Below, in pieces: positions 2,348-63,999 of a stretch of DNA of 64,000 nucleotides (position 1 is the stretch's first letter; each line of letters opens with the position of its first letter). The stretch lies in IMG/VR virus record IMGVR_UViG_3300037400_003033, positions 747 through 64,746 of that record. One strand, 5' to 3'. The DNA is from a virus. Its lineage: Duplodnaviria; Caudoviricetes. Below the pieces are notes generated by a model. That model was given only the letters and a program-made list of their open reading frames with translations, did not search any database and was not told where the DNA came from. A program made the translations under genes and the position numbers.

Positions 2348-2719
2348 ATGTTAGATAAAAAACAAGCAGAGAAAATAAGTCAATGGACAAACCATCAGCA
2401 AGTGCTGATGAAGTATGGACAATTTGCAAAATCTTCTTTAACAAAAGAAGAAGTTAAGACTCTTCGCCCTGAAAGAGACGAAAAGTTTATTAACAGTGTT
2501 ATCCTTACACCTTGTGTTATTTGTATGACACCTAATGAAACAGAAGACAGATTCTATCCAGAATTTTGGCTTCAAGTAAAAGGATGGTACGGACAAGACA
2601 AATCTTGGGTATGTTTTTCTCCTAATGGAAAGGAAGAGATAAAAACATTTTTGAAGATTGCTAAAAAACATCTTTCTTCTGCTACAATTAAAGAGGAAGT
2701 AAATTACTTCCCTTACTAA
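2348..2719 (+). CDS. Hypothetical protein with C-terminal YFPY tag (putative head-packaged)
   Basis: GAGGA RBS; ends IKEEVNYFPY; AAGTTAA motif upstream. Confidence 0.85.
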   Translation: MLDKKQAEKISQWTNHQQVLMKYGQFAKSSLTKEEVKTLRPERDEKFINSVILTPCVICMTPNETEDRFYPEFWLQVKGWYGQDKSWVCFSPNGKEEIKTFLKIAKKHLSSATIKEEVNYFPY

Positions 2720-42876: not shown

Positions 42877-42950
42877 ATTTTCTCCTTTTCTGACTTACTT
42901 ACTGTCATTAATATTATCTTATTGTTGTAAAGATAAAAGTAAGGTAAAAT

Positions 42951-44681: not shown

Positions 44682-45080
44682 TTATAACAAATCTCTCAAA
44701 CCTTTGTTTTTATTCTTTGATAAAATTCTAGCTGCAGAAGTTGAGAATCCACCATATACATATGCTCTCCATTCTGGGGCATCTTCATCTTCTCCAAATC
44801 TCTTTGTTGCTATTCTAGATAATTTATCATAAAGTTTTTGAGAGTCTTCAGATTTTAAATATTTTTTTATTTCACTTCTTGAAGCATAAGCGTTAAATCT
44901 ATGGCTTATTTTATTTTGAATTTGAGAAACTAATCTTTCATTTCCTGGAGTTGCTCCACCAGAGTAATCCCAATATGTTTTACCTTTTTCTATATAAGAA
45001 CCCCTTTTGTTTCCTTTATAGTCTGGTTTATGAGTATAGTTTCTTTTTTCAAGTAATAAACCAATATCTTCAAATTTCAT
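44682..45080 (-). CDS. Putative head-packaged protein
   Basis: MKFEDIGLLLE N-terminus. Confidence 0.6.
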   Translation of the reverse strand: MKFEDIGLLLEKRNYTHKPDYKGNKRGSYIEKGKTYWDYSGGATPGNERLVSQIQNKISHRFNAYASRSEIKKYLKSEDSQKLYDKLSRIATKRFGEDEDAPEWRAYVYGGFSTSAARILSKNKNKGLRDLL

Positions 45081-45541
45081 TACATCTGTCCTAAAGCTTC
45101 TTGAGTGCTTACAGAAGGCTCGCTTTCTGTAGCGTCATTGCCTTCTACTTCTCCCCTATTCTCTGTTTCAGTAGAAGCTTCTTTTGGGGCTTCTTGACCA
45201 CCAAACAAATCATCTAATTCTTTTTTATAATTTTCTAAAGCGGTAAAAGCAGCCTTCTTTAATTCTTTGATAAGTTCTGGTTTTATTTCTTCTGGAATTT
45301 TATTTTCTCTTGGGGAACCAATCATACCGCTATCGCAAACTTTTTCACAACATCCGTAAACACCAAAGCGGCTTGCTTCTCCATTAACTATTCCAAGAAT
45401 AGAACCCTGAAGTCTTTCTAAGAAATAAGAAGTTCCAAATTGCTGATTTCCTATTCTGCTTTTAAGTGCTTTTACAGCAAAAATCTTTTTTAATTGATCG
45501 GAAGCGTTTGTATTACTACCAAGTATTTCATCCAAAGTCAT
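45080..45541 (-). CDS. Hypothetical protein
   Basis: TAATG coupling. Confidence 0.75.
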   Translation of the reverse strand: MTLDEILGSNTNASDQLKKIFAVKALKSRIGNQQFGTSYFLERLQGSILGIVNGEASRFGVYGCCEKVCDSGMIGSPRENKIPEEIKPELIKELKKAAFTALENYKKELDDLFGGQEAPKEASTETENRGEVEGNDATESEPSVSTQEALGQM

Positions 45542-47007: not shown

Positions 47008-48090
47008 TTAGAACATAAGAAGTTCTACACATTCTTTAACTGTTCCAACGTCTGTTGTTCCAGTTTCTTTAGAAGTATCCAAAGCATCTTTCAGAGCATT
47101 GATTTTTGAAACAAGTTTTTCATCTGTAATTTTATCAAGTGCTTTATCAAGTGCTGACTTAAGAGCATCGATATCTTTATCGTCTGTAGAAAGAGAAGCG
47201 TCTGTTTCTTCTGCACCACTTTCTTCGTCTTCTGTGATAAGATCTCTTGTTTCAGAAAGCTCTTCGCTTTCTGCGATTACATCGTTAATTCTTTCAACGA
47301 TTTCTTTTCTTGATTCCTGAAGAGTTTTATTTCCAATAACTGCAAGTCCAACAAACTCTTTAAGTTTTGTGTCTTTAACAGCCAAGAAAGCAGGGTTTTC
47401 AGAAAGAAGATCTTCCATAACTGTGTAATCACCATCCATCATATCTTCAACTGCTTCCAAGAAAGTCTTTTTGAACTCTGGGTCTTTCAAGAGTTTCTCT
47501 GCTTTTGCGTTAGCGTTTGTGATGATTGTTCTGTCTTCATCTTCGTTAATGATAGATACTCTTACAGGGTCTACCCAGTTAAAGTATTTAATTGATGAAC
47601 TTGGTGATTCTGAAATAAGTGCTTCATAGTTCTTGAAGAATGGCATATTTGCTACGTCCTGGATTTCTTCATTAATACCATCAAGTTCCACATAATTGAT
47701 TACATCACTATTTTTTCCTGCAAGAGCATTTACAACACTTTCAGAGAGTTCTGTATTCTGCTCGTCAGATTCATCTTCGAAGGCTTCTGCTAAAGCTGCT
47801 GTGTCGTAAGCGTCAGCGCTGAAATATTCCCTAGCGGCGTTAGCAAATGAGTTCTCCTCTTCTACAATTTCGATTGGGTCGAAAGATTCTAATGTAAGAA
47901 CTTTTCCGTCGAAATTATAATCTGCTGTATAAAGTGCTCCTGTCTGGGTATCAGCCATAAGAACTTTGTCAGAATATGTCTCAAGAAGAACAGCATTTGC
48001 TGATTCATTTATAAGACTTCTACAAAGTTTTTCTAAATTCTTATTGGAAAAAAGTATATAATTACTAAGTTTGCTTTTTGTAAGTTCCAT
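47008..48090 (-). CDS. Acidic prohead core / scaffold-like protein
   Basis: Many L/I-x-E motifs (LINE, LLE, LISE, LSE, ITE); near portal. Confidence 0.5.
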   Translation of the reverse strand: MELTKSKLSNYILFSNKNLEKLCRSLINESANAVLLETYSDKVLMADTQTGALYTADYNFDGKVLTLESFDPIEIVEEENSFANAAREYFSADAYDTAALAEAFEDESDEQNTELSESVVNALAGKNSDVINYVELDGINEEIQDVANMPFFKNYEALISESPSSSIKYFNWVDPVRVSIINEDEDRTIITNANAKAEKLLKDPEFKKTFLEAVEDMMDGDYTVMEDLLSENPAFLAVKDTKLKEFVGLAVIGNKTLQESRKEIVERINDVIAESEELSETRDLITEDEESGAEETDASLSTDDKDIDALKSALDKALDKITDEKLVSKINALKDALDTSKETGTTDVGTVKECVELLMF

Positions 48091-48811: not shown

Positions 48812-50812
48812 TTACTCTTCCTCTTCACTTAACAATCTTTCTTCTGTGATTAGTTCTTCACCCTTTCTAGTTTTAACTTTTTTATAAACTGAAAATGAAT
48901 CATTAGCAAAAGAAAGACCACCAAGTTCATTTTCATAATAAAGAGCCATTCCAGAATCATTAACTGCTTCAACTTCTTCTTTAATTAATAATTCTTTAAC
49001 TTTATTTATAAACTCATTATTTGAAAGCCCTTCCTCAACTTCTTCTTTTATAAGATTTGCCTCTTTTTCTTTTTGGTATTCTTCGTAGGCTTTCATTAAT
49101 TTAGAATAATCTTCCTTATGCTCAATAAGAATGTCTTTACCGAATGCTTTTACCATTACTTTTGGAGATAACTCTTCTGTTTGAACTGACATCATAGGTG
49201 CTGGAGCTGCTCCCATATCTGTTGGAGGCATTCCGCCTGCTCCCATATCTGCTGGAGGCATTCCGCCACCCATTCCCATTCCACCCATCATATCTCCGCC
49301 CATTCCACCTTGTTGAGCAGCAAGTGAAGCCATTTCGATATCTTTTTGAAGATTGATATCTGCAATTTCCTTCTTTGACATTTTCATTACATATTTAAGA
49401 ATAAAATCTTTAGGGAATAAATTAGTTCCAAGCATTGCAGAAATAAGAGAAATCTTTTGATTAAGATATTCAATATCCATAATCTCTTTAACGTTTGAAG
49501 GTGGTGTTAATTCAATTCTGAAATTCTTTAAATCTGCTTTTTTCTTTTTCTTAAAGAAAAGTTCAACTGCAGCAATTTTTGTAAGACCTTCTTCTATATA
49601 ATACTGAATACGTTCAATAAATCTAGCGAACTTAACATCCTGCATAGCAAGAGAGCCCTTTTGACCGCCCATTGCATTTCCATCAGAAGTAAATCCTAAG
49701 AACTCAGGTGGGATATTAAGTGTCCAAAGAAGCTCATCTCTAAACATTCTAATATCATCAATATTATTAAGACCCTGGCCAGGTTGTAATGTTGTAACTT
49801 CTGTACCTGCCTGCCCTTCTCTTGTAGGAATAAAGATATCCTGAGTAACTGAAAGAGCAGCCGCAGTTTTGTTAATATTTCCTTTATCATCCATTATTTG
49901 ATTTGAACGATAATTATTCTTTATTTTCTGTACATATCTATTTGCTTCATTAGTTGAAAGATTACCGCAGTCAATTTTAAATACTCTTCTTTCTGGTACA
50001 CGAGCCAAACGATAAATCATTACTGCGTCTTCAAGCATTGTATAACGTCTATAAGTTCTTACACCTGGGTCTAACAAAGAAAGTCCATAAGGTGCAAATT
50101 TTTTATTTGAAATCTTAAAATGAACTATCTGCCAAGGCTGAAGTTTATAAACAACTTCGTGATTCTTTTCGTCTTTTTCCATTACATTAGAATAGTCTGT
50201 ATCATCAAAAGCATCAGTTCTATAAGTGTAAAAAGCAAGTCTACCGTTCTTTTCTACACGATTTACTTTATCTGTTTTTAAGTATCTTATTCTAGCAACT
50301 TGTGTTGGATGTTCATAACTATCAGGAATAATCTCATAGAAGTTATCACCAAGTTTACAGGTTTCAATAAATATAGACCAAAGTTCTTTATTAAGGTTTA
50401 ATCTTACATGGAACAAATCGTCAAGTATATTTTTTATATCTTCATCGTTTGAATAAACCTTTACAGTATTACCTTCAACGTTTTTTTGTGTTCCATCATC
50501 TGCAATTGTTTGAAGACCTCTAGACAAGAATGGACAAGCAGCCATTTCTTCGTATGTATCATAATAAGCAGCTCTATTCTCTGGCGAAAGTCTATTATTT
50601 AATGTATTATTTTGAGAACCAAAAGCATCACCAAAACTATTAATACCACCGTCATAACCAAAGTTATTAAGGTTACTTGAGAGTTCTTTTTCTTCTTTTT
50701 TTGTAACTTCCGTTTTAGTTGTTTCTGGAAGTTCATTTATCGCATCTATTTTTTGCTGTATCTGTTGTGAATGTCTTAAATCTATAAATTGTTCTTTTCC
50801 GTTTTTAATCAC
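48812..50812 (-). CDS. Portal protein (T4 gp20-like)
   Basis: PYGLSLL, LEDAVMIYRLARVPERRVFKIDCGNL, DIFIPTREG..GTEVTTL, IDDIRMFRDEL. Confidence 0.95.
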   Translation of the reverse strand: MIKNGKEQFIDLRHSQQIQQKIDAINELPETTKTEVTKKEEKELSSNLNNFGYDGGINSFGDAFGSQNNTLNNRLSPENRAAYYDTYEEMAACPFLSRGLQTIADDGTQKNVEGNTVKVYSNDEDIKNILDDLFHVRLNLNKELWSIFIETCKLGDNFYEIIPDSYEHPTQVARIRYLKTDKVNRVEKNGRLAFYTYRTDAFDDTDYSNVMEKDEKNHEVVYKLQPWQIVHFKISNKKFAPYGLSLLDPGVRTYRRYTMLEDAVMIYRLARVPERRVFKIDCGNLSTNEANRYVQKIKNNYRSNQIMDDKGNINKTAAALSVTQDIFIPTREGQAGTEVTTLQPGQGLNNIDDIRMFRDELLWTLNIPPEFLGFTSDGNAMGGQKGSLAMQDVKFARFIERIQYYIEEGLTKIAAVELFFKKKKKADLKNFRIELTPPSNVKEIMDIEYLNQKISLISAMLGTNLFPKDFILKYVMKMSKKEIADINLQKDIEMASLAAQQGGMGGDMMGGMGMGGGMPPADMGAGGMPPTDMGAAPAPMMSVQTEELSPKVMVKAFGKDILIEHKEDYSKLMKAYEEYQKEKEANLIKEEVEEGLSNNEFINKVKELLIKEEVEAVNDSGMALYYENELGGLSFANDSFSVYKKVKTRKGEELITEERLLSEEEE

Positions 50813-50893: not shown

Positions 50894-51073
50894 ATGGGTT
50901 ATAATTTTAATCTTGAACAAAATGAAGCAGAACTTTTAATGAATGCTTTACAAAACCAAACAAACGGCATACTTATGAAGATACAATCTCAGTTCGCAGA
51001 ACAAACCAAGCAGCCAGAAAAAGAAGAGGATGAGTTATTAGTGGAGGATAGCGATGGCACTAAAGGAAATTAA
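50894..51073 (+). CDS. 59-aa hypothetical protein
   Basis: Promoter TTGACA 50846-TAAACT 50869; AAGGAG RBS before ATG 50894. Confidence 0.7.
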   Translation: MGYNFNLEQNEAELLMNALQNQTNGILMKIQSQFAEQTKQPEKEEDELLVEDSDGTKGN

Positions 51074-51773
51074 TGTTAGTAAAGGGTTTGAGAATTATTC
51101 CCAAAGAAACAATGAGGTTTTGCCAAGTGTTGCTTGTGGGCCAACAAATATGGTTCAGGCGTTAGAATACTCTGGTTGGGAACTTGATAAAAATAAGCTT
51201 CCAGAACTAAGTCAGCCAGAAGACAAACTTATGAAATTTACAAGAACAAATGAAACAGTTCTTAAATATTACGAAACAAAATATAAAAACATGTATAAAA
51301 ACTGGGTTGAAGAAAGCAAAAGATTAAAAGCAGATGGACAAGAAATTTGGCAAGTAGACTGTCCAAAAGCGAATGCCCCTAACGAAGTTCATGACGTAAT
51401 GAATTTTGCTACAAATGTTTTTCTTGGTTATACACAGAAAGATATAGAAGAGGGCCATTTTGCAACTTGGTTAACAAATTTTGATGAAGATTATTTAGTT
51501 GAAATGCTAAAAAGAGGTTTACCAGTTGTTACTTCTGTAAGATTTAAAGATTTTGGACACTATATCACAATTGTTGGTGCACAGTACAAAAAAGATTTAG
51601 ATAAGAACAATATTGAAAATTATATTATTGACAACACATACGGAAGATTTGATTTTAAACGCGAAGTTTATGAAAAAACAAGTGGTAATGATAACCTATT
51701 ACCAAGAAAAGAATTACTCGCAAGAGTAAGACCAGTTATGCATTGTTTCAGGAAAGGAGCAATAGTGCTATAA
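51054..51773 (+). CDS. Peptidase C39-like protein
   Basis: YSQRNN..ACGPT (Cys), GHYITIVG (His), IIDNTYG. Confidence 0.8.
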   Translation: MALKEINVSKGFENYSQRNNEVLPSVACGPTNMVQALEYSGWELDKNKLPELSQPEDKLMKFTRTNETVLKYYETKYKNMYKNWVEESKRLKADGQEIWQVDCPKANAPNEVHDVMNFATNVFLGYTQKDIEEGHFATWLTNFDEDYLVEMLKRGLPVVTSVRFKDFGHYITIVGAQYKKDLDKNNIENYIIDNTYGRFDFKREVYEKTSGNDNLLPRKELLARVRPVMHCFRKGAIVL

Positions 51774-51804: not shown

Positions 51805-52749
51805 TTAATAAGGGAAATAATCTTCTTTTATTTGCTCTTCACCAGTTTTAAGATATCTTCTTAAACCTTCATAATCTGGGTTGTTATAATCTGCTGTAAA
51901 ATAGCCAGTATAATCTTGATACTTTTCTGGGTCTTTTGGCTTTACACAAACAGCCTGTGCTGGTTTAGCAGAAGCATTAAAGTTTGCTGTTGAACCTTGA
52001 TAAAGTGTACCATTAATTAAAACAACTGGGTTTTTATAGTAATTATTTCCAGCACCACGCCAGATAATCTTAATTTGTCCTTCTGGTTTTACCCCAGAAG
52101 AAGCTAATTTCTTTACATAAGAAGACAAAGAAGTTGCACCTTCCATTGGTGGTTTATCGGTAAAAGTGTTAATCTTGTAGATAGCGTTTCTTCCAGCTCT
52201 TTCATCATGTGAAAGTGTTTTAGCATTTACGATTTCTTTACCTTCTTCTTTTGCTTTCTGAATTTTTTCAGACTTATATGCTTGACGAGTCATTCTTCTA
52301 TATGTTTCAAAAGAACCATCGTCGTCTTCCAAATCGTTCTTGTAAACATCTTCTGATACGCCTAAAGATTTTACCAAAGCAGTCAAATCCTTTACGAGTT
52401 CTGCTTTAACCTGTTCTCCACTTTCCACTTTTGATTTTTCACCTGGCTTTGGAACTGGACCAACTTCATTAGGCTCAAAAGTAATTCCAGGGGCACTCTT
52501 ATTATAGTTTCCCAAGAAATCATCAGTAATTTCTTGCCACTGTCTCCAAACATCTGCTGGGAGCTTACTCTTTTGTTTTGCCAAAGAAGTATTCAAAAGC
52601 CCCAAGAATCTCTGGAACTTTGCTTTATCATTTTTTCTTATAGCAGTAATCACTAAATTTGCATAAACAGATATGTTCTTTTTAGGATCTGCTTCTATAT
52701 CAGATTTTAAATCTTCAAGAATTAAATCAATATCCATTTTAGTCTCCAA
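51805..52749 (-). CDS. Putative head-packaged protein with YFPY tag
   Basis: LILE near N-terminus; ends QIKEDYFPY. Confidence 0.7.
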   Translation of the reverse strand: METKMDIDLILEDLKSDIEADPKKNISVYANLVITAIRKNDKAKFQRFLGLLNTSLAKQKSKLPADVWRQWQEITDDFLGNYNKSAPGITFEPNEVGPVPKPGEKSKVESGEQVKAELVKDLTALVKSLGVSEDVYKNDLEDDDGSFETYRRMTRQAYKSEKIQKAKEEGKEIVNAKTLSHDERAGRNAIYKINTFTDKPPMEGATSLSSYVKKLASSGVKPEGQIKIIWRGAGNNYYKNPVVLINGTLYQGSTANFNASAKPAQAVCVKPKDPEKYQDYTGYFTADYNNPDYEGLRRYLKTGEEQIKEDYFPY

Positions 52750-52755
52750 TATAAA

Positions 52756-54684
52756 TTAACTTATAAGCCATTGCCATATATTATAGGCGTCGTCTGCGAA
52801 TCCTTCTGGCATTCCTTGCTCTTCAGTAAATCTTTCTATAGCTGCTTCTTTTTTCTCCTCATAATCCTCATCATAATCAGAATTACCATTACTAACAGTT
52901 ACTTCTCTACCTTCCTCGTCAACAAAAGCAACTTTCTTATTAGCCTCATCGCCTTTCGGCATCTTTTGCTTAATCTTTTGAAGATTATAAAGTAAGATAG
53001 CCATTGCCATTATATCGTCATCGTGAGAACCTTCTGTGTGGTCTGGTCTTCCACCTGCCCATACCCAAGTTTTCATTTGGTCAACAAGACGTTGTGAATG
53101 TGGGTGAAACAACGGCCAGTAGTCGTCTTCCGCCATATAGTCAATAAAACAGTCGGTAATCATTTCACGAGATTTAACTGTTGTCATCCATCCAGTCCAA
53201 ACTTGTGTTTTATCATGTTTATTAATCTTCTTCATTTTGTACATATTTTCATAATTATAATTATAGTACAAATCGTTAAAGACTGCTTCACCAATAGAGT
53301 TACATTCTACATAAATATAAGCGTTGTTGTAATATTTTCCCAAATCATTTACAAGTTTGGCACCCTCTTTTGTGGATATTCTTCCAAGATATTCTGCTAC
53401 CTGCTCTCCTAAATCCAAATCCAGAACTTGTATAGATGTGGAGTCGTCTGCCGTTCCTTTCGCAACGTCCATACCAATACCATATCTATGACCTTTCTCT
53501 GGCAATGTCCAAAACCATAATCCTTTCCAGTGTCTTGCACCAAGATCTCCTTCTTTTATAGGATTTAAAACTCTTTCCTGAACCTTTTCCAAAACTGTTT
53601 TTGAGAACACAGAGTTTCCCATTACAACGAAGTCTTGCAAAATTTCCTGACGATATTTTACTTCTCCAGAAGTTTTAAACTGGTAAGCAAGCCAAGGATT
53701 TTCTTTTGGCTTTTCCGCAATTGGTCTAAAGAACTCTTCTGCTTCTTTTTTTACGGCAGGGTTATTCCAATAATCTCTGTCCTCGAAATATTTTAGTTTG
53801 TCATTGTATCCTTTATGTGGTGTAATTGTTGGGTAGTCAGGACACATCCACCATTGAACATCATAAAGAACGGCTTCTGTCATTGGGTCATATCCGCCAC
53901 AATTCTTTAATTCTTGTACCTGTTCATAGTACAATTGTCCTTCACCAGTTGTTCCGTTAGGCGTACTAACTATAAATATAGGCGCACCTGTTTTGGCAGC
54001 AGATGGTACAACTGAAGAAACAATACCTTCAGCAATACCCTTTGTTTGATAGAAACCAAACTCATCAAGTAAAAGTATAGTAGGTGAAGTACCACGCCCT
54101 GCTGATTTAGACCTTGCAAATGTATCTATTTTTGATTTATTACTAAACTTACATCCTTTCTGATTATTAATAATATCTTTTACACCAGTCCAAAATGGAA
54201 TATTTTTAAAATTGTCTTTTATCTTTTCATAAACGTCTGTTGAAGATTTACCGTCTTTAGATATTACAACACCCCACTGAGAATCGAAGAATACAATTCT
54301 CCAAAAGAAAATTAAAGCCATAAGTGTTGAAAGACCAGTCTGACGAGATTTTGTCAAAACAACCTTTTTATGGAAAATAAAATCTTTAAGAATTTCTTTT
54401 TGGTAGTAATATAAATTACTTCCTGGAAGTTCACCAACACCAGGAAGTGTAAAAGAACAATATTTAGAAATAAAATAATATGGTGATTTTTGACACAAGT
54501 ATGTTTCAATACCTACGTCTATTAATTCTTTGGTTTTATCGTAATAGACTGTCTCAACAAACTGATTCTTTGCATGTTTAAGACAGTCATTAAATGTGAC
54601 ATAAGTATTTTTGTCTTTTTTTATTTCATAGTCTTTTATCTTTTTTAAAACAGACTCTTTAAATTTTCTTTCTTTCTCTGTCAT
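52756..54684 (-). CDS. terL: Terminase large subunit (T4 gp17-like)
   Basis: KSRQTGLST, LLLDEFGF, VSTPNG, GMDVAKG, VECNSIG, HDDDIMAM. Confidence 0.95.
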   Translation of the reverse strand: MTEKERKFKESVLKKIKDYEIKKDKNTYVTFNDCLKHAKNQFVETVYYDKTKELIDVGIETYLCQKSPYYFISKYCSFTLPGVGELPGSNLYYYQKEILKDFIFHKKVVLTKSRQTGLSTLMALIFFWRIVFFDSQWGVVISKDGKSSTDVYEKIKDNFKNIPFWTGVKDIINNQKGCKFSNKSKIDTFARSKSAGRGTSPTILLLDEFGFYQTKGIAEGIVSSVVPSAAKTGAPIFIVSTPNGTTGEGQLYYEQVQELKNCGGYDPMTEAVLYDVQWWMCPDYPTITPHKGYNDKLKYFEDRDYWNNPAVKKEAEEFFRPIAEKPKENPWLAYQFKTSGEVKYRQEILQDFVVMGNSVFSKTVLEKVQERVLNPIKEGDLGARHWKGLWFWTLPEKGHRYGIGMDVAKGTADDSTSIQVLDLDLGEQVAEYLGRISTKEGAKLVNDLGKYYNNAYIYVECNSIGEAVFNDLYYNYNYENMYKMKKINKHDKTQVWTGWMTTVKSREMITDCFIDYMAEDDYWPLFHPHSQRLVDQMKTWVWAGGRPDHTEGSHDDDIMAMAILLYNLQKIKQKMPKGDEANKKVAFVDEEGREVTVSNGNSDYDEDYEEKKEAAIERFTEEQGMPEGFADDAYNIWQWLIS

Positions 54685-54692
54685 AATGCCTC

Positions 54693-56615
54693 TTAGTATG
54701 GGAAATAATTTACTCCTTCATACATATTTTCTCTATACTCTTTATTTACTCTGTTTTGGATAATATCGCTTTGAAATTTTTGACGCCACAATCTGTTATA
54801 AGCGCTCATTATTTTCCAAGCAATATCTTTATATTCTTCTTTGTTATACTCGCTATATTCTTCTCTTTCTTCATTATATTCAAAAGCCGTGTTTGGTAGC
54901 CAGCGAACATTCTTTCTATTAAAAGGGTACCCTTTTTCAATAATAAATTCTGTTTCATTACCAACACGATCTCCGATGATTAATCTAACAGTTCTTCCAG
55001 CCATTCCATTATAACCATTTCCTTTAAGTCTTAATTGCTCAGGACTTTCTTCTGGGATTTGGAAGCCTCTAATATTTTTTGATTTCATTTCTGCAGCAAA
55101 TTGCTTTTGAACAGCTGCATGAATTTCATTAAGTTTCTCACCTGTTTTTTTATTTTCAAGGTAATCTTTAACTCTATCTTTACGATAATAAACAGTTTGG
55201 TTTGGGTTGCCTCTATAAACACCAGATGCTTTTAAAGGCATAGTTTTTTCTTCTACCCCTTTAATTGCTTGGAATAATTCATCAAGCAAAGTATCTCCAA
55301 CTTTGTTTTCAACCTTTCCTTCAGAATTGTGTGCTTTCTTAGAATATTTTACTTGATAATAATGCTCTGGGTCTCCTTCAAGATAATATCTTTTTGCACC
55401 TGCTTTCTTTTCATATATATGTTTCTCTATTTTACCATCTCTCACATAAGAGCTTAAGCCACTTTCATAATTTTCTGGATATTCTTTATCTGTTGCTTTC
55501 TTTGAGATAGATTTGTAAACTTTCTTTCCTTTAATTTTTTCAAGAAGTTCATTATAATATTTTTCACTTAGTTGATTTTTTAATCTTCCTAATGCTGCGT
55601 TTAAAGTTTTAGAATCTATTTCTTGTGGCTTTCCAAAAGTTGTTTCACCTTTCTTTGTATATCCTCTTTCACCTTCGTGTGGGTCAACTGCAGGTGTGGC
55701 TTTGTAATCAGCCATTGTCTTACCTTTCATTTTACCAACTGGAATAGGAATTTTCTTCAAAAGTTCTGTAGGAATTTTTGACAAATCTCCGCCAGTAACC
55801 TCATCGCCATTTTCGTCATTTTGATCCAAGAACCAAACTGTGATGTAGTCGTCTTTTCCATCATCAGTTGTTTCCCACTCAAAGGCCAACTGATAAGATT
55901 TACCAGTCTTCATATTTCTGATAATATAAAGTGGCGCTCGTTTAGAATATTTATTATAATAATATTCATCACATCTAGTACACCATTCAGTCGGCGTTTC
56001 TTCACCATTTTTAATATAGAAAGAAGCTGCTTTAGCGCCGTCGAATGAGGTTGGTGACATTAGTTTCCAAGTACCGTCGTCATAAAGATTTTTTACGTCC
56101 TGTATTTCACCAGAGCCTTTTGATTTTTTTCCGTGATTTCTTTGCTCTCTCTGAATGTCTTTCTCTAATTCATGTAATGTATCAATGCTTGTGAAATTCC
56201 AGCTACTTCTTTCCATCAATGATTGGAAGGCAGTCATTTCTTTTACCCAAGGTTTTTTATAAGATTTAAGAACTTCATAAAAACCATCAGTGTTTACAAC
56301 GTCGGCAAGAAGGCTGCTATTTGGACTACAGTCTTCGCCATCGTCATCATCATCATTACTATAGCAGTCAGTTTTTGATAATAATAGCTGAACACCATAA
56401 GTTGTCTCTTTAACGCCTAGCTGTTGGCATCTTTCAAAAAAATATCTTAAAATAGACTTTAAAGCGTTTGGGCATTTTTGTGCTGCGATTTTGAATGAAT
56501 TATTTATTTTTACACCAACTTGATTTGCTTTAATTGCTGAGATTGTTTCATCGGCATTTGAAAAATTATATCCTTCTGTAAGAAGTCTTACATATTTATA
56601 TTTAATGTTATCCAT
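54693..56615 (-). CDS. Putative head-packaged protein, EWCT-domain paralog A, YFPY tag
   Basis: LLTE N-terminal motif; TEWCTRCDEYYY..YSK.APLYIIRN; ends MYEGVNYFPY. Confidence 0.75.
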   Translation of the reverse strand: MDNIKYKYVRLLTEGYNFSNADETISAIKANQVGVKINNSFKIAAQKCPNALKSILRYFFERCQQLGVKETTYGVQLLLSKTDCYSNDDDDDGEDCSPNSSLLADVVNTDGFYEVLKSYKKPWVKEMTAFQSLMERSSWNFTSIDTLHELEKDIQREQRNHGKKSKGSGEIQDVKNLYDDGTWKLMSPTSFDGAKAASFYIKNGEETPTEWCTRCDEYYYNKYSKRAPLYIIRNMKTGKSYQLAFEWETTDDGKDDYITVWFLDQNDENGDEVTGGDLSKIPTELLKKIPIPVGKMKGKTMADYKATPAVDPHEGERGYTKKGETTFGKPQEIDSKTLNAALGRLKNQLSEKYYNELLEKIKGKKVYKSISKKATDKEYPENYESGLSSYVRDGKIEKHIYEKKAGAKRYYLEGDPEHYYQVKYSKKAHNSEGKVENKVGDTLLDELFQAIKGVEEKTMPLKASGVYRGNPNQTVYYRKDRVKDYLENKKTGEKLNEIHAAVQKQFAAEMKSKNIRGFQIPEESPEQLRLKGNGYNGMAGRTVRLIIGDRVGNETEFIIEKGYPFNRKNVRWLPNTAFEYNEEREEYSEYNKEEYKDIAWKIMSAYNRLWRQKFQSDIIQNRVNKEYRENMYEGVNYFPY

Positions 56616-56631
56616 ATAATTAACTTAAAAT

Positions 56632-56657
56632 AAAAAAGCCCGTCGTTTTGACGGGCT
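56632..56657 (-). terminator. Intrinsic terminator
   Basis: AGCCCGTC-aaaac-GACGGGCT plus T6 on - strand. Confidence 0.85.
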
Positions 56658-56675
56658 GTAATTAATCAATTTTAA

Positions 56676-57803
56676 TTAGTATGGGAAGTAGTTAACATCT
56701 TCTTTTACAAGTTTTTTAATCTTTGCTTTGTTAATAGCTGATCTTACTAAATTTGACAGCTTACCCTCGGTTTCCAGAGCTTTTTTTGCCTGATTATAAG
56801 CCTCTTCTCCGTATTTTTCTTTAATATGATTACACTCTGCGTTGAAATTTGCAACTATATCTGGACCAGCTTTTACATCGGCGTTTATTGCTGCGTCTAA
56901 TGATTTTGCTGCAAATTTTAATTCTTTATAAGCGCCAGCAAATGCTTTACCATCTGCTGCTTTCTCTGCTCCATACGCTTTTGCTTTTGAACCATATTCT
57001 TTACCATACTTTGTGGCAGTGTCTTTAAATTCAATTCCTTTCTTGTGAAGTTCTTGAGCAAATTCATTAGTTCTATCTTCAGCTCTGCTGTAGTTGTATT
57101 CTTTTCCAGCCTTATCCATTTCGCTTTGTGCTGCTTCTCTTTTAACGTTTTTTACGCCACCAACAACACCAGGAGCGGCTGCAAGAGCAGCTGTTGCACC
57201 TAAAGCAATTGCGCCTCTCTTAAGATGCTTCTTTAATTTATCTGCTGAGAAAGCTTCTTCAAGTGTTTCCTCAAATATTTTTGTCAGTTTTTCTTCTGTC
57301 ATTTTTGTTTCTCCAATACTATTAACTTCTTCAAAAAGATTTACAAAATAGTCGTCTACTATGCTATCTTCAAAAATAACACCCTGGTTTTCCAAAGCAT
57401 TTTCCAAAGCCTCGCGAACAACACCAGCCTTTACAATATGGCCGAATTTCTTGTTCCAAGCATCACAATAAGCCTGAGCTGCGCTTCCTCTTGTTTGATG
57501 TTTAGCTGCCTGTGCTGCTAATGCTGCTCTTTTTGCTTTTTCTTCTTCAGCATCTTTTACTCTCTGGAGTGCTACTTCTCTTTTCTGAGCATTATCTGGA
57601 TCGTGTGCAATTTTATAAGCAGCGTTCTTAGAAAGGCTACCCATCCCTGCTTTGTTAAGTCTAGTAGAAATCTGTCTTTCTGTGATTTTACCAGCTACAT
57701 ACAAGTCTGCAAGCTCTTTTTTAAGTGCTTCCCAATCTTCTTCTAGCAATTGCTCTCTTTTAAATCCTTCTGCTAAAAGTTCTGCCATTATGTCGTAATT
57801 CAT
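56676..57803 (-). CDS. Putative head-packaged helical protein with hydrophobic segment, YFPY tag
   Basis: LLAE, LLEE, TLEE motifs; GAIALGATAALAAAPGVVGG; ends VKEDVNYFPY. Confidence 0.7.
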   Translation of the reverse strand: MNYDIMAELLAEGFKREQLLEEDWEALKKELADLYVAGKITERQISTRLNKAGMGSLSKNAAYKIAHDPDNAQKREVALQRVKDAEEEKAKRAALAAQAAKHQTRGSAAQAYCDAWNKKFGHIVKAGVVREALENALENQGVIFEDSIVDDYFVNLFEEVNSIGETKMTEEKLTKIFEETLEEAFSADKLKKHLKRGAIALGATAALAAAPGVVGGVKNVKREAAQSEMDKAGKEYNYSRAEDRTNEFAQELHKKGIEFKDTATKYGKEYGSKAKAYGAEKAADGKAFAGAYKELKFAAKSLDAAINADVKAGPDIVANFNAECNHIKEKYGEEAYNQAKKALETEGKLSNLVRSAINKAKIKKLVKEDVNYFPY

Positions 57804-57813
57804 TTATTTCTCC

Positions 57814-59046
57814 TTAATTGTTGCTTTCTTCGCCTAAAACGTTTCTTCTAATTCTTTCTTTTTTTCCACCATTATTGGTGTAATATCCATATCTTTCTTT
57901 CTTTTCTCTTTTTTGTTCTATTTGATCATTAATTTTTCTACTGTTTTTATAGAAAGCATCTCTTTTAGCATGAACTAATTTAAAAATACCTTCTTCAATT
58001 TTGCGAAGAGTTTCTGGGCTAATACTTGTACCAGAAGAATTAAAGTCACCATGAGGTCTATATCCGCCTAAACTTGTTCTTGCGTCTACTTTGCTTTCCC
58101 ATCTCTTACCATTTGTATCAATAACAGCAAAACTAACATACTGTGGATCTATCCATTCTCCACTACCAACTGTGTCTGGTTTAGCATCCCATTTTTCATC
58201 ATGCACTAATTCTACCTTTGCTACGTTATCTTTACCAGCATAAAGTCTATTAACAGCACTAATAACTGGCTCAACAACTCTAGCAAAATGCATAGAAACC
58301 ATATCGTTTTTGATGCCACTATGTCTCTCACTTGCTTTTCTTTTCTTTAAGGATTTTTGTGTTACTTCTTTTTTAAAATAATCGCCGTTTTTGTCAATTC
58401 TTCCAGTACCGTTTTGTAAATCCTTTTCATGAATTCTCATGTTTCTATAATATGTTTCTGGGTCAAAAGCTTCACCAAGCATTTGCTTAAAACGGTTTGT
58501 TACATGGTCTTCAAAACCTGGGCGATGTTTGCTTGGAATATTTCCATTATACTTTTTGCTAACTTTGGAATATCTTTCCTCTGCTCTGTTAAGCATTTCT
58601 TTATCATATCTTTTGTAATTTGCATGATATGATTTAGCATGTAATTCAAACCATTTATAAACAAAAGATCCAATTGGGTCTTTTGCTGGTGTATTTCCAC
58701 CATTATCATAAATTTCTATTTTATATCTTGAATTATAATCATCTCCACCTTTATTGTTTGTTTTCTCAGTGTTATAATAAACATTACCTTCTGCGTAATT
58801 GTCTGTATAGAAATTCTTAATAATATCACCGTCGTATTTTTGGCCTGCAAATTTTTTAGTAAGAACTCTACACAAAGTTTGTGTCTGATGATTTGATATA
58901 TCTTCAAGGCCGCCGTACAATTTTTTTGCTCTTGCCTTCTTTTTAGCAATTGCGTCTGGCTGGCTTGTTTTCAATTTACGATATTCATCGTGTGAAATTG
59001 TAATATTATTTTCAAGTAATAATCTTAAAGTGCTTTCTGTAATCAT
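57814..59046 (-). CDS. Putative head-packaged basic protein
   Basis: MITESTLRLLLE N-terminus; no YFPY tag. Confidence 0.65.
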   Translation of the reverse strand: MITESTLRLLLENNITISHDEYRKLKTSQPDAIAKKKARAKKLYGGLEDISNHQTQTLCRVLTKKFAGQKYDGDIIKNFYTDNYAEGNVYYNTEKTNNKGGDDYNSRYKIEIYDNGGNTPAKDPIGSFVYKWFELHAKSYHANYKRYDKEMLNRAEERYSKVSKKYNGNIPSKHRPGFEDHVTNRFKQMLGEAFDPETYYRNMRIHEKDLQNGTGRIDKNGDYFKKEVTQKSLKKRKASERHSGIKNDMVSMHFARVVEPVISAVNRLYAGKDNVAKVELVHDEKWDAKPDTVGSGEWIDPQYVSFAVIDTNGKRWESKVDARTSLGGYRPHGDFNSSGTSISPETLRKIEEGIFKLVHAKRDAFYKNSRKINDQIEQKREKKERYGYYTNNGGKKERIRRNVLGEESNN

Positions 59047-59054
59047 ACTTTACC

Positions 59055-60998
59055 CTATCCTTTAATTAACTTTCTAAATCTGTTTACAATATTTACAGAT
59101 TCATACATATTCTTTTTATAGTTTCCCTCAGCTCTGTTTTGAACAATTTCACCCTTGAACTGTTTTCTCCAAGTGTTAAATATGTATTGAGCAACATCGA
59201 AACATATATCTTTCATTTTTTGTGGAACTTCAGTACTGTCTTGTAAGTCAAACCAACATTCCATATCTTCTTTTCTTAATGGAACTTTTTTAAACTGGGT
59301 ATAAAGTGTTCCAACAAAATCATCTTTGTTTTTATAAACTCTAATGCACCAATTAGTTCCAGGGGCATGACTATCTCCACCGTAGAATCCACCCATTCCA
59401 TTTATTCTTCTATCAAGCTCTTTAGCTCTTTTTGTACGTGCTCTGTATCTAAAAGAACCAATTTCCATATTTTGAAACTCATACTGTGGGAAAGCGGCTT
59501 TTAATTTTCCTACTGCATATTCTTTCATTTGAGCATTAAATATTTTTTCTTTTTTTGCAGACTCGTCATATTTTTGATTTGCCGCTCTTATAGCACTTTT
59601 AGATGCATATACCGTTCTTTCAGGTTGTGCTTTTGCTCTTTCTGAAACAGGATTTGACAATTTTGCAAAGTCTTTTGTAGGAATACTATATCCCATTTCA
59701 TAAAAGCCAACATACTGCAAAATTGTTCTGGTATAGCCCATTGCTGTTGCTTCATTTACGCTTGGTTTAATTCCAGCCTTTTTAGAAGCAACAAGTTCTA
59801 CATATTCATCTGGATTACCCAAAAAGTAATATCTTACCTTTCTTGCTTTTGGAAAATATTTATTTTCTACCTTTATTCCGTTTTCTACATAATTAGTTAA
59901 TGCGTCTTCTTTTTTATCTCCTTTAAAAGAACCATGTATGGAAGTAACTCTAACTATATCTCTATCACTAAATCTTTCAGTGTAATTTGGGTTTCTGTCG
60001 CCTCTTTCTACGGCATGCTCATCCAATTCTTTTGCTATTCTTCTCTGATATTTTTTATCAACTATTTGCTCTTTTGACCAAGTTTCTTTATCAGCGTTGA
60101 TATATCCAGGTCTCTTAGCATCTGGGTCTGATTCATTTTTGGCTGTATTGTAATCAGCCATTGTTTTTCCTTTTGATTTACCCGCTGGAATAAGAATGTG
60201 TTTTAAAAGTTCATTAGGTATTTTTGATAAATCACCTTGTGTAATTTTGTCTCCTTTTTTATCATTTTGATCTAAAAAGTGAACTATTACTATTTCCTTA
60301 TCTGTATCCCAAGAAGTATCCCAAGTGAAAGCCATTTGATAAGATTTACCAGTCTTCATATTTCTGATAATATAAAGCGGAGCTTGCTTAGAATACCTTT
60401 TATAATAATATTCATCACATCTAGTACACCATTCAGTTGGGGTTTCTTCACCATCTTTAATATAGAAAGAAGCTGCTTTAGCCCCTTGAAAAGAACTTGG
60501 TATCATTAATTTCCAAGTGCCGTCATCATAAGTGGTTTTAACGCCGTTTAAATCACCACCACCTTTAGCGGCTTTACCATGTTTAGATTGTCCTTCCTGA
60601 ACTACTTTTTCAAAAGTATGCAAATCATTAACGGTAGCGCCAAGCCATTCTTTTTCATTCATTAAAGTTTGGAATTCTTTTAATTCCTTTACCCAAGGCT
60701 TTTTTCTAGATTTGAGAAGTTCATAAAAACCATCTGTTCTTATAATATTTTCAAGATTAGTAGGTGGAACTTTTGAAAGTAAAAGTTGAACACCATAAGT
60801 TGTATCTTTAATACCAAGTTCGTTACACTTCTTGAAAAATATTCTTAGTTTTTCACAAGCGTAGCCCCATTTAGTTTTATCCTTATATTCTGGTAATAAT
60901 TTTACACCAATCTGATTTGCTTCAAGTGCATCATATACTTCTTCGTCATTTGTAAAATTATAGCCTTCTGCTATTACAATTGCGCTCTCAAAATCCAT
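59055..60998 (-). CDS. EWCT-domain paralog B (no YFPY tag)
   Basis: Homologous to 54693-56615; ends MYESVNIVNRFRKLIKG. Confidence 0.75.
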   Translation of the reverse strand: MDFESAIVIAEGYNFTNDEEVYDALEANQIGVKLLPEYKDKTKWGYACEKLRIFFKKCNELGIKDTTYGVQLLLSKVPPTNLENIIRTDGFYELLKSRKKPWVKELKEFQTLMNEKEWLGATVNDLHTFEKVVQEGQSKHGKAAKGGGDLNGVKTTYDDGTWKLMIPSSFQGAKAASFYIKDGEETPTEWCTRCDEYYYKRYSKQAPLYIIRNMKTGKSYQMAFTWDTSWDTDKEIVIVHFLDQNDKKGDKITQGDLSKIPNELLKHILIPAGKSKGKTMADYNTAKNESDPDAKRPGYINADKETWSKEQIVDKKYQRRIAKELDEHAVERGDRNPNYTERFSDRDIVRVTSIHGSFKGDKKEDALTNYVENGIKVENKYFPKARKVRYYFLGNPDEYVELVASKKAGIKPSVNEATAMGYTRTILQYVGFYEMGYSIPTKDFAKLSNPVSERAKAQPERTVYASKSAIRAANQKYDESAKKEKIFNAQMKEYAVGKLKAAFPQYEFQNMEIGSFRYRARTKRAKELDRRINGMGGFYGGDSHAPGTNWCIRVYKNKDDFVGTLYTQFKKVPLRKEDMECWFDLQDSTEVPQKMKDICFDVAQYIFNTWRKQFKGEIVQNRAEGNYKKNMYESVNIVNRFRKLIKG

Positions 60999-61007
60999 AT
61001 TGTCCTC

Positions 61008-61829
61008 TTAGTATGGGAAATAACTTTCTTTTACTACTTTACGATTTCTCCCTGTTGGATCTAACTCAACAGGCTGCAATCTTTGAAGTGTATCACTTCC
61101 AATCTTTTCAGTTGTAAACTGTGGTGGCTCCTGGTCTGGGATATCAAAGTCAAAATCTATCTTTTCTGTTTTTCCACCAACTGTTAAAGTATTATTTGCT
61201 TCGTTATATTTAACGTCTTTACCAGCAATGTTCATTTCATAAGTGTTAGCATTCTTTACTATTGAATTAACAATCTTTGCTGTATCTTTTACACTATTAA
61301 ACAATGATTTTGTAGATAAACCAAGTCCACCAAGCATTCCTGCTATAAGTGTTGAACCAATTAAAGCTGGTTTAATCTTTTTATTAAATACTGTTTTAAA
61401 ATCTTCTTCAAGCAAGTCTTCAGTAATTACTGATGCCTGGAACTTTTCCTTAAATTTCTGTATAAATGTTTTCTGTTGCTCTGGTTTTTTAATTGTTAAA
61501 ACTTCTGCAGGAACATCAATTCCACCACCATTGTCAAAATTTACACGGCAAGAACCATCTGCTTTAAATACTAAGTCTGTAGTCTTATAATCTTGTTTTG
61601 CGTTTACTTTATCTAACAGACCTTTCTTTTTAAGATATTCAATAACTGCACTTACGCTACCTTTTGTTGCTACTCTTCTTGTACTAATATCTGCAGTTTT
61701 AGTATAATCTTCGTCTTTACCACCAGTTTTATCATAAGCAGTTCTTTGTTTTACAGCGTTAGTTACTGCCAATGCTTGTCCGTTTCCAAGCTCTATGTTC
61801 ATTTCATTTAAGATATCATTAATTGTCAT
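61008..61829 (-). CDS. Putative head-packaged two-module protein, YFPY tag
   Basis: ILNE, internal VITEDLLEED, hydrophobic helix, ends VKESYFPY. Confidence 0.7.
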   Translation of the reverse strand: MTINDILNEMNIELGNGQALAVTNAVKQRTAYDKTGGKDEDYTKTADISTRRVATKGSVSAVIEYLKKKGLLDKVNAKQDYKTTDLVFKADGSCRVNFDNGGGIDVPAEVLTIKKPEQQKTFIQKFKEKFQASVITEDLLEEDFKTVFNKKIKPALIGSTLIAGMLGGLGLSTKSLFNSVKDTAKIVNSIVKNANTYEMNIAGKDVKYNEANNTLTVGGKTEKIDFDFDIPDQEPPQFTTEKIGSDTLQRLQPVELDPTGRNRKVVKESYFPY

Positions 61830-61865
61830 GTTAACCTCTGAGATTATACAATTAACTTAAAAAAT

Positions 61866-61890
61866 AAAACCCGCTAATTAGCGGGTTTTT
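61866..61890. terminator. Intrinsic terminator
   Basis: AAAACCCGC-taatta-GCGGGTTTT. Confidence 0.85.
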
Positions 61891-61893
61891 GAA

Positions 61894-62625
61894 TTAATAG
61901 GGAAAGTAATTTTCTTTAATTGTCTTATTCTTTTGATAAATCCAAAAAGTAACTTCTCCGTCTTCACTTTCAGCTTCGTACATTTCATATTTACTTTTTG
62001 TTTTTTTATTTAGTATTTTCAAAGCCGAAAGTAAAATTTTATTTTGTTTAGCAATTGCTTTCGGATCTGTTTCTTCTTCTGGTTTTATTTTAAGAGTTAA
62101 ATAACTATATTGTTTATTCTCAGGGTCGTAAGATGCTTTAACGTTATAATATTCATTTTTATATTTTACTTTTATATTTGTTAGTCTTCTGCTAGAAATC
62201 TCTTCCTCTAAAACATCTTCTGTTATCATACTGTCATACAGTTTTTTCCATGCTGAGTAGCTGCGTCCATCATGACCGTCTATACTAAGATGATAATAAT
62301 CAGTGTTTAAAAGGTCAATAGCGGCTTTTACAATATCCGCCCCTTCTTTATCTATAAGATCTTCCAAAAAATCTTTCATTGGAGTAACCTGAAGATTTTT
62401 ATCATTTTGGTTATCATCATAGTTGTCTTCCAGTTTGTTAGAAATTGTGCTTAAATAATTTACTGTATTTTTATCCTGAACTACTTGCTGTGTTTTTGGT
62501 TTTGGCTTTACAAATTTATTCTTTAAGTTTCCTAAGCTTCCAGCTGCTGCTGGGCTAGCCAATGTACCAGCAGCAAGCATTGCTGCAACTGTTTTTTTAA
62601 ATTTACTTGTTTGTTCTGTTATCAT
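61894..62625 (-). CDS. Putative head-packaged two-module protein, YFPY tag
   Basis: MITE then signal-like helix; internal ITEDVLEEEIS; ends IKENYFPY. Confidence 0.7.
   Translation of the reverse strand: MITEQTSKFKKTVAAMLAAGTLASPAAAGSLGNLKNKFVKPKPKTQQVVQDKNTVNYLSTISNKLEDNYDDNQNDKNLQVTPMKDFLEDLIDKEGADIVKAAIDLLNTDYYHLSIDGHDGRSYSAWKKLYDSMITEDVLEEEISSRRLTNIKVKYKNEYYNVKASYDPENKQYSYLTLKIKPEEETDPKAIAKQNKILLSALKILNKKTKSKYEMYEAESEDGEVTFWIYQKNKTIKENYFPY
62193..62226 (-). repeat. 34-nt repeat encoding ITEDVLEEEIS, copy 1
   Basis: 33/34 identical to 63175-63208. Confidence 0.9.
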
Positions 62626-62626
62626 A

Positions 62627-63862
62627 TTAATTAACCTCCGACTTTTTTTTGGAAGAATACTTTATACTTCTATAAGTATTTAGCGCCTTCATTCTTCTGT
62701 TTTCTCTGTTGTTATGAATAACGGCAACATCGTAAGCTCCAATTGCAAAACCAGTAAGCCCCATCATATTTCCCGTAAGGAGAGAAATTGTTCCACCTAG
62801 CCCACCTAATAAAGTAAAAATACCAAGGTCTCTAAGAATAACTTTAATTGCTGGATCATTCATGCTGTCCTTTATTTGCCTCTTTGCCTCTTTTAAAACA
62901 GCAACCATTTGCTTTTCCAGCTCTTTTGCATCTTCTTTTGTTTCGGGTGTAACATTATCATTAAATTTTTTTAGTTCTTTAATATTCTTTAATTCTTCTT
63001 GCGCTTTTTTAAGCTGAAGAGTTGTTTTCTTAAATGCTTCTATGGCTCCAGATGATATTGCTTTACCCTCTCTTTTTTTCATAGCGGCACTCATTCTGGT
63101 AATAATTTTATTTGAATCACTTTCAAATTTATTTGCCAATTTTTCAAGTTTATCAAGTTTCTTTGTAACCTTTTTAGAAATCTCTTCCTCTAAAACGTCT
63201 TCTGTTATTCCTCTTGTAAGTGGTGCTTTATTAGCAAGAATAACTTGAAGATTTGGCAACTTCAAAGATTTAGCAAAGTTTACATTCTTCAAATCATCAT
63301 CTACGAATTTAACCTTATCATATTTCTGGCAAATGTTCTTAATTACCATACCTTTCTTTTCTGGGTCGTTTGCTCCAGGATATGCTTTAATTTCGTCATT
63401 TACTGCTGCAGAAATTTCTGACTTAAGTCTATCGCCAATAGGACTAAGTTTTCCATTATCATCTTTAACCTTTAAGAATGCTCTTAAGGCAGCATCTACA
63501 ACATCTTGCAAACCTCTGGCTGTCAAGAAAGCGATATCATAGTTTGCTTTGACATGTGCGTCAAGCAATCTCATCTGCCTAAGAAGTGGTGTTCCACCTA
63601 CGATTGATGCATATACTTTTTCTGGGTCTCTGAACTCTTCATAAGAAAACCAACCCCTATGAGTTGCTGCGTCAGGGTCTTTTGCATATTGATCTGTGGA
63701 AAGTCTAACTGGGTCTTTTCCAGGTTCTCTTTTTATAATACCAATTGCTTTTGAGTCTGCCTGTAGCAAACAATCATCTATATCAAAAAGTATACATCCT
63801 TTTTTGCCTTTTTCAAGTGGCTTTATTTCTTCTACTATATTTATTGCGTCTTGAAAATCCAT
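62627..63862 (-). CDS. HAD-superfamily phosphatase domain fused via ITEDVLEEEIS to a helical/TM module
   Basis: ILFDIDDCLL, FLTARG, KFVDDD; C-terminal hydrophobic helices. Confidence 0.75.
   Translation of the reverse strand: MDFQDAINIVEEIKPLEKGKKGCILFDIDDCLLQADSKAIGIIKREPGKDPVRLSTDQYAKDPDAATHRGWFSYEEFRDPEKVYASIVGGTPLLRQMRLLDAHVKANYDIAFLTARGLQDVVDAALRAFLKVKDDNGKLSPIGDRLKSEISAAVNDEIKAYPGANDPEKKGMVIKNICQKYDKVKFVDDDLKNVNFAKSLKLPNLQVILANKAPLTRGITEDVLEEEISKKVTKKLDKLEKLANKFESDSNKIITRMSAAMKKREGKAISSGAIEAFKKTTLQLKKAQEELKNIKELKKFNDNVTPETKEDAKELEKQMVAVLKEAKRQIKDSMNDPAIKVILRDLGIFTLLGGLGGTISLLTGNMMGLTGFAIGAYDVAVIHNNRENRRMKALNTYRSIKYSSKKKSEVN
63175..63208 (-). repeat. 34-nt repeat encoding ITEDVLEEEIS, copy 2
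   Basis: 33/34 identical to 62193-62226. Confidence 0.9.
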
Positions 63863-63888
63863 ATTATTCTCCTAATTATATAATTAAC

Positions 63889-63999
63889 TTAATATGGAAA
63901 ATAATCTTCTTTAAGGAGTTCTTCATTGTTTACAACAACTGTGTCTGCTGTATAATTTCTTTTGAGATAGTCTCCTTGACTTTCATTTTTTAAAGGTTT
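63889..63999 (-). CDS. 3' end of a truncated CDS with YFPY tag
   Basis: KPLKNESQGDYLKRNYTADTVVVNNEELLKEDYFPY-stop; runs off window; not in track. Confidence 0.75.
   Translation of the reverse strand, partial: KPLKNESQGDYLKRNYTADTVVVNNEELLKEDYFPY

Follow-up and report, generated by a model that had tools for sequence, protein, structure and literature searches.

Why should seven otherwise dissimilar proteins of one phage end in the same four residues, and what might such an ending do? The question is raised by a stretch of 64,000 nucleotides (hereafter the window), comprising bases 747-64746 of the linear 64.7-kb viral contig IMGVR_UViG_3300037400_003033, in which the tetrapeptide Tyr-Phe-Pro-Tyr (YFPY) recurs at the extreme C-terminus of encoded proteins. 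A first-pass annotation had listed seven open reading frames (ORFs) closing with YFPY and a stop codon, and a six-frame scan recovered all seven at the same coordinates: YFPY occurs eight times in the window, seven times as the last four codons of a long ORF with TAA next, and once, at 42949, in a reading frame riddled with stops. The tagged products are a 123-residue protein encoded among tRNA genes (2348..2719, plus strand; ending IKEEVNYFPY) and, all on the minus strand, a 310-residue protein encoded directly downstream of the large terminase subunit gene, TerL (51805..52737; starting MDIDLILE and ending IKEDYFPY), a 640-residue protein encoded directly upstream of TerL (54693..56615; MYEGVNYFPY), a 375-residue protein with a conserved Ala/Gly-rich hydrophobic segment (56676..57803; VKEDVNYFPY), a 273-residue protein (61008..61829; starting MTINDILNE and ending VKESYFPY), a 243-residue protein (61894..62625; starting MITEQ and ending IKENYFPY) and the last 36 codons of a gene cut by the contig end (63889..63999; LKEDYFPY). 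The residues preceding the tag are thus IKEEVN, IKED, MYEGVN, VKEDVN, VKES, IKEN and LKED. The ORF at 51805 extends to 52749, although the likely start is the ATG at 52737, which has GGAG upstream and gives 310 residues. The contig does not circularise and the ORF at its end is 5'-truncated; full-length orthologues of the truncated protein have 126-131 residues and end IKEDYFPY or LSESYFQY. Only 2348..2719 stands outside the TerL cluster, and its product has no Pfam or PHROG match.

Such a pattern might be due to chance, or to a signal in the DNA, such as a promoter or terminator, that overlaps the gene ends. From the proteome composition, the probability of any given C-terminus being YFPY is 3e-6 and that of seven or more such ends among 82 genes is ~8e-30, and the crude gene sets from three genomes contain no internal YFPY, against 0.17 expected. 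Synonymous codons differ among the seven tags (TAC/TAT, TTC/TTT, CCT/CCA/CCC), bearing out the annotation's claim of conservation at the protein level, and after removal of their last 12 residues the seven proteins form seven separate BLAST families (E<1e-5), so that the bodies are indeed unrelated. One TAA stop does begin an AAGTTAAT motif, a candidate late promoter, as a DNA-level signal might lead one to expect, but most tags are not followed by this motif. Relatives of the phage vary the third residue of the tag and keep the Phe and Tyr. The residue pattern in relatives, the varied codons and a probability of ~1e-29 refute both explanations, and we regard either as next to impossible. Several genes of the head cluster, and some plus-strand genes, have a motif of the AAGTTAAT type upstream of their starts, at a distance of 9-35 nt. 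Such motifs are found upstream of four of the six tagged genes whose start is in the window (2348, 52737, 56615 and 61829; the first has it at a distance of 26 nt and shares it with the portal gene and other late-type genes), and also upstream of 59046, 63862, 50812 (the portal gene), 48090, 46926, 35488 and in the region of 12012; at rIIA a sigma-70-like TATAAT stands in place of the motif.

The phage, a giant myophage from the gut, is an uncultured and distant member of the T4 superfamily, since it encodes a T4 gp20-type portal (48812..50812, minus strand; PF07230, E=8.5e-78; phrog_213), a tail sheath, rIIA and TerL (52756..54684, minus strand; PHROG phrog_2, E=5e-36), and since, among cultured phages, its portal is matched best by those of Microcystis phage Mel-JY01 and Flavobacterium Immutovirus, at ~31% identity. 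The sheath has 977 residues, and thymidylate synthase, a helicase and many tRNAs are also encoded in the window. CheckV estimates the contig to be 28% complete, implying a genome of ~230 kb. In the GenBank phage collection the window region has no nucleotide match and the 640-residue protein no protein match; homologues of the latter occur on contigs of 227-230 kb from gut metagenomes, one of them NCBI LR756505.1, whose accession series probably belongs to the 2020 'huge phages' survey. The related records, all of them partial genomes, are G001 (103 kb, TerL 89% identical to that of the window), G002 (20.5 kb, TerL 68% identical), the 52.8-kb IMG/VR contig G006, and 22-kb pieces of ENA contigs of 227 kb (L024), 228 kb (L046) and 164 kb (L047).

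The annotation had proposed a search for YFPY followed by a stop across the proteome and its relatives; this found the tag at C-termini only, and a looser form of it in the relatives. Many late-cluster proteins in all six related records end in this form, the consensus of which is hydrophobic-x-Glu, 0-5 residues, and then [Y/F/W/L]-F-x-Y at the free C-terminus. Observed endings are YFPY, YFNY, YFDY, YFQY, YFGY, YFEY, FFDY, WFNY, LFDY, VFNY and NFNY, the third residue being P, N, D, Q, G or E. In crude gene sets, the tagged share is 7/82 in the window, 9/90 in G001 (10 with one ...SIFNY end), 9/20 in G002 and 6/26 in L024, and two more distant genomes carry 5-7 tags per 22 kb. When 38 tagged proteins are stacked on their C-termini, Phe at -3 and Tyr at -1 show no variation and the upstream Glu is nearly invariant; together with the 640-residue protein of the window they fall into 19 BLAST-unrelated families, a minimum for the clade. 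Orthologues of the 310-residue protein in five relatives end NFFDY, NFNY, WFNY or LFDY. Among the 60 clusters (90% identity) of the 640-residue family, 51 end in F-x-Y; the others are either truncated or represent a paralogue whose own conserved ending differs. In the window this paralogue has 647 residues (59055..60998, minus strand); it keeps NMYE and ends ...NRFRKLIKG without a tag, and its orthologues conserve the alternative ending (KLITG, KLIEG). The paralogue-type ending ...KLIKG may represent another class of C-terminal signal. TerL proteins of the clade end ...WLIS or ...WLLG. No C-terminal ends of the F-x-Y kind occur in the head regions of the two cultured phages nearest to this one, and the tag is hence specific to this clade.

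The tag also stays in place as the proteins that carry it are remodelled. Orthologues gain or lose whole C-terminal modules, yet the tag remains at the extreme end, and the joints between modules are I-T-E-D/E-x-L-E-E linkers. The 273-residue protein of the window, with the internal linker VITEDLLEED (61404-61427), shares residues 1-142 with a 154-residue protein of G001; the latter stops soon after the linker, ending ...ITEDVLEELTENKKVNYFNY with the tag retained, while the former continues for 130 residues beyond the shared part before ending ...VKESYFPY. Likewise, the G002 orthologue of the 243-residue protein (linker MITEDVLEEE, 62203-62226) has 144 residues, lacks the module after the linker and retains the tag. 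In the 640-residue family an N-domain of 300 residues is kept and the remainder is swapped. The same kind of joint occurs in an untagged 411-residue protein (62627..63862, minus strand), in which GITEDVLEEE (63185-63208) connects a HAD/PNK-like phosphatase to a helical, hydrophobic C-module; in G001 and G002 the phosphatase stands alone (212-214 residues). The tag is a portable, clade-conserved C-terminal element maintained at the protein level, and that the motif is real and portable we consider close to certain.

What might it be for? One indication comes from the residues that precede it. [ILVM]-x-E lies a short way upstream of YFPY in 7/7 window proteins, as the annotation had it. Across three genomes, 20/25 tagged proteins have a hydrophobic-x-Glu no more than five residues upstream of the tag; at the same position, 24.5% of 159 untagged proteins have one (Fisher p=1.5e-7, a significance inflated by orthologues, which are not independent). 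The spacing from the Glu to the tag is mostly one residue (...KE-D-YFPY) or three (...EE-VN-YF.Y). That T4 gp21 cuts after I/L-x-E, and that T4 internal proteins carry a capsid-targeting sequence (CTS) at their N-terminus, is established, as the annotation stated (PMC9958956, PMC9026906). A second indication comes from the opposite end of the proteins. The N-terminal pattern M-x-[ILV]-[NDES]-x-[ILF]-[ILF]-x-E, with Glu at residue 8-9, occurs in 8/37 tagged vs 13/276 untagged proteins; examples are the window proteins at 51805-52737, 61008-61829, 23834-24292 and 12017-12601, and the gp21 homologue at G006:339-980. It strongly resembles the N-termini of T4 core proteins (gp21 MNEPQLLIE, gp22 MLKEQLIAE, gp67 MEGLIE and Alt MELITE).

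The clade also encodes a protease of the gp21 family. G001:74158-74796 is a homologue of the T4 gp21 protease (Peptidase_S77; PF03420, E=3.7e-17) and the protein at G006:339-980 is a second one; in an alignment of the clade protease to T4 gp21 and the protease of Immutovirus, the catalytic His, Ser and Asp are invariant. Searching IMG/VR contigs that overlap G001 with PF07068 located the capsid protein on the clade contigs G003 and G006 (E=1e-57 and 8e-62), outside the window and G001, and in both it is preceded by the gene for an acidic gp22-like protein of 268 or 271 residues. Both gp23-type capsid proteins contain I-E-E|A-P-Q or L-T-E|A-P-Q at residues 68-72, and this conserved [IL]-x-E|A site, ~15 residues before a conserved VMFPIIRR block, corresponds to the T4 gp23 propeptide boundary. 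The gp22-like scaffold contains 19-20 [IL]-x-E-type sites in ~270 residues. The protease and the capsid boundary support, and do not prove, a T4-like specificity of the clade protease. Tagged genes lie on the late strand around TerL and the portal gene, and in G006 they adjoin the scaffold and capsid protein genes; among the scaffold, capsid protein, portal and protease of the clade, none is tagged.

We favour the view, as somewhat better than an even chance, that the tail is a portable C-terminal address for prohead cargo that is removed by the head protease. The annotation had likewise proposed a C-terminal targeting peptide clipped at maturation, and the evidence supports that idea in part. 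It would be a two-part C-terminal propeptide, consisting of a gp21-type site (hydrophobic-x-Glu), 0-5 further residues and a docking motif, the aromatic [Y/F/W/L]-F-x-Y ending in a free carboxylate. The tag would mark accessory, fast-evolving and basic proteins for incorporation into the core of the assembling prohead, where they would dock on a component of the core, shell or portal; the activated gp21-family protease would then cut after the Glu, freeing the cargo inside the head and allowing a peptide of 5-10 residues to leave. Location in the virion, cleavage and binding partner are each matters that we infer here.

Several observations weigh against this view. Hydrophobic-x-Glu carries little information and could belong to a binding epitope rather than to a cut site, and a nearby site is missing from a few tagged proteins (e.g. 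...QTNNYFGY and ...KEKTSKYFEY). The density of hydrophobic-x-Glu along whole proteins is not raised (1.9 per 100 residues in tagged vs 2.1 in untagged proteins), and only its terminal positions are special. One pair of orthologues differs in the tag, the 145-residue protein of G001 having it and that of the window (45080-45541) lacking it. The protease and capsid protein genes lie outside the window, which covers 28% of the genome, and are known from relatives; furthermore, the nearest cultured phages (~31% portal identity) lack the tag, and the clade has no cultured relative.

The same evidence of context and portability would also be expected if the F-x-Y end were a permanent docking motif, anchoring its protein to a virion component such as the portal, the inside surface of the capsid or an inner body, and persisting in the mature protein, with hydrophobic-x-Glu as part of the epitope. 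Encapsulin cargo-loading peptides, and similar C-terminal peptides that bind capsids, are not known to be removed, and the two main classes of Glu-to-tag spacing (one or three residues) would fit a single extended epitope. However, the full range of spacing runs from 0 to 5 or more residues and some tags have no Glu, which suggests two separable elements, while the ITEDxLEE linkers and the T4-like N-terminal x-x-E on the same proteins point to processing. On balance, we consider a permanent anchor unlikely.

Other properties of the tagged proteins bear on whether the head is their destination at all. The 38 tagged proteins belong to no known Pfam or PHROG families, giving just three marginal Pfam matches, one of them to DUF3854. 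An AlphaFold2 model of the 640-residue protein has no PDB match by Foldseek at E<=0.001, and residues 628-640 are modelled as a disordered tail (pLDDT<50); in the ESM Atlas, its N-domain falls in unnamed viral clusters only, with PcfJ accounting for 26% of one cluster. A moderately hydrophobic, Ala/Gly-rich segment occurs in 7/27 tagged proteins from three genomes. PDZ domains and tail-specific proteases recognise aromatic residues at a free C-terminus, and the tag might instead be a signal unconnected with the head: a degron, a site for chaperone or PDZ/TPR-type docking, a signal for loading into the membrane or tail lumen, or a clamp-binding (PIP-like) tail. The hydrophobic segments would suit some such role, as would the position of one tagged gene among tRNA genes and of one G001 tagged gene beside nrdD/nrdG-like genes. 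Against this, head proteins known to be ejected, SPN3US gp47 among them, have such segments too (PMC5694885). The median isoelectric point is 8.9 in tagged vs 5.7 in untagged proteins, and T4 internal proteins are likewise basic (PMC9026906). Clustering with TerL, portal and capsid genes, N-termini like those of the T4 core, protease-type sites and basic ORFans all fit head cargo better. No tagged protein is a replication enzyme, there being no such Pfam match above the curated cut-off among the 38, and the spacing of a clamp-binding motif (Q-x-x-hydrophobic-x-x-aromatic-aromatic) is not kept; we rejected that motif, as the spacing of the tag is variable and there is no Gln. A destination other than the head is, in our assessment, improbable.

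Two kinds of enzyme gene near the tag clusters raise a further possibility, namely that the tail is a recognition or modification site, either for a radical-SAM/SPASM maturase that cross-links its aromatic residues or for a C39-like cysteine peptidase. A SPASM-type radical-SAM gene lies inside the G001 tag cluster (G001:33497-34768). Another gene of the radical-SAM family is placed between the portal and C39-like genes in G001 (16464-17330) and also in L046. The C39-like gene of the window (51054-51773, plus strand; PF13529, E=4e-7) sits between a tagged gene and the portal gene, and in all five genomes seen it is conserved at this place, on the opposite strand and beside a tagged gene. Yet radical-SAM genes with CxxxCxxC are absent from the 20.5 kb of G002, which carry 9 tags, from the 22-kb L024 piece with its 6 tags and from the 52.8 kb of G006, and L047 (22 kb) has none listed, all of these records being partial. 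L024 and L028 have an unrelated 171-residue gene at the syntenic SPASM position, and the one such enzyme of the window is HemN-like and is encoded 14 kb away, amid genes of nucleotide metabolism. A maturase role would seem weakened by these absences, and we judge modification of the tail by either enzyme to be very improbable. The HemN-like gene (36876-38240) matches NCBIfam hemN at E=3e-22, far below the cut-off. The third radical-SAM gene of G001 is NrdG-like (88634-89152) and adjoins a probable NrdD. A small ORF preceding the C39-like gene was considered as a holin and rejected; it has no hydrophobic segment, and a holin-endolysin pair is unsupported.

Returning to the cleavable cargo address, a bolder version may be stated, which as a whole we think doubtful. 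Cargo would carry a two-ended code, in which the F-x-Y tail and the N-terminal leader M-x-x-N-D-I-L-x-E dock at distinct sites of a T4-type prohead and a gp21-like protease clips both. The tag would then be a minimal (~5-residue), transferable signal for loading into an HK97-fold shell, similar in action to an encapsulin cargo peptide except that release is built in, and modules would be shuffled at the ITEDxLEE joints.

Certain other features of these genomes were noted. Past the T4 model the portal has a C-terminal extension of 170 residues, which ends close to an L-I-T-E-E motif. Adjoining the portal gene, 47008-48090 encodes a very acidic, helical protein of 360 residues with the conserved end ...VKECVELL[MSN][FL]; it is distinct from the gp22-like scaffold, the protein encoded ahead of the capsid protein in G003 and G006. 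Genes for a 755-residue VWA-like protein (DUF2201; 15757-18024) and a 498-residue AAA ATPase (20304-21800) flank rIIA, an arrangement reminiscent of MoxR-VWA pairs. The TerL of L047 (L047:11942-15049) has 1035 residues with a LAGLIDADG_3 match; an intein or a homing endonuclease probably interrupts it. Three independent IMG/VR contigs (G001, at its end at 103322, L032 and L033) stop 18-246 nt past the same 721-residue gene, and this shared stop may mark a physical genome end or a repeat that breaks assembly.

Short C-terminal peptides that bind a shell are familiar from other systems, among them the encapsulin cargo-loading peptides, the C-termini of the P22 and 80alpha scaffolds and the HK97 protease tail. 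The C-terminal tail of the herpesvirus scaffold addresses the shell interior and is then clipped at a maturation site by the maturation protease. All of these resemble the proposed tag in being a short C-terminal address to the inside of an HK97-fold shell. They differ from it in that their sequences are unrelated, and in that the tag is borne by many proteins other than scaffolds in a T4-type phage. The nearest parallel in T4 is provided by the CTS of IPI-III and the gp21-removed propeptides of Alt, gp67, gp68, gp22 and gp21, which are likewise short terminal peptides on unrelated, variable and often basic accessory proteins, with an adjoining hydrophobic-x-Glu site (PMC9958956, PMC9026906); for the clade tag, this likeness is read from sequence. 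The clade is also T4-like in having a gp21-family protease, a gp20 portal, a gp23 capsid protein and an acidic gp22-like scaffold. However, the T4 CTS is N-terminal, with the address followed by the site, whereas the clade tag is always C-terminal, with the site before the address. The tag further differs from the CTS in its invariant F-x-Y with a free carboxylate, in having no sequence similarity to it, and in its spread over at least 19 families.

The first-pass annotation had taken a C-terminal YFPY signal to be undescribed, and this stands in so far as literature searches on YFPY with phage, and on shared C-terminal propeptides, found no description of such a tag; C-terminal processing as such is, however, already known (PMC9026906, PMC10052503). 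The prohead protease removes C-terminal pieces from the head proteins gp21 and Alt of T4, and from the proteases SPN3US gp245 and phiKZ gp175 of giant phages (PMC9026906, PMC10052503). These pieces, of 23-64 residues, are individual and share no motif, and T4 Alt ends ...MPYKFVQG, unlike the clade tag. Alt is processed at both ends (PMC9026906), as is proposed here for proteins that combine an N-terminal x-x-E with the tag. The CTS-type signals and giant-phage propeptides published so far lie at the N-terminus, and known C-terminal processing concerns single proteins (PMC9026906, PMC10052503).

Only in the case of the N-terminal CTS of T4 is it known in detail how accessory proteins come to be selected for packaging into a large phage head, and packaging in giant-phage heads has been inferred from long N-terminal propeptides. 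If the reading favoured here is true, a head-loading code can sit at either end of a protein, and a C-terminal signal of 4-8 residues that needs a free carboxylate would carry its own release site. Such a signal would also be a very small handle for loading foreign proteins that need a native N-terminus. Tagged genes make up ~8-10% of the two larger records (7/82 and 9/90), and the function of nearly all of them is unknown; if the reading is true, the likely injected proteome of an abundant, uncultured clade of gut and rumen jumbo phages would become readable from sequence.

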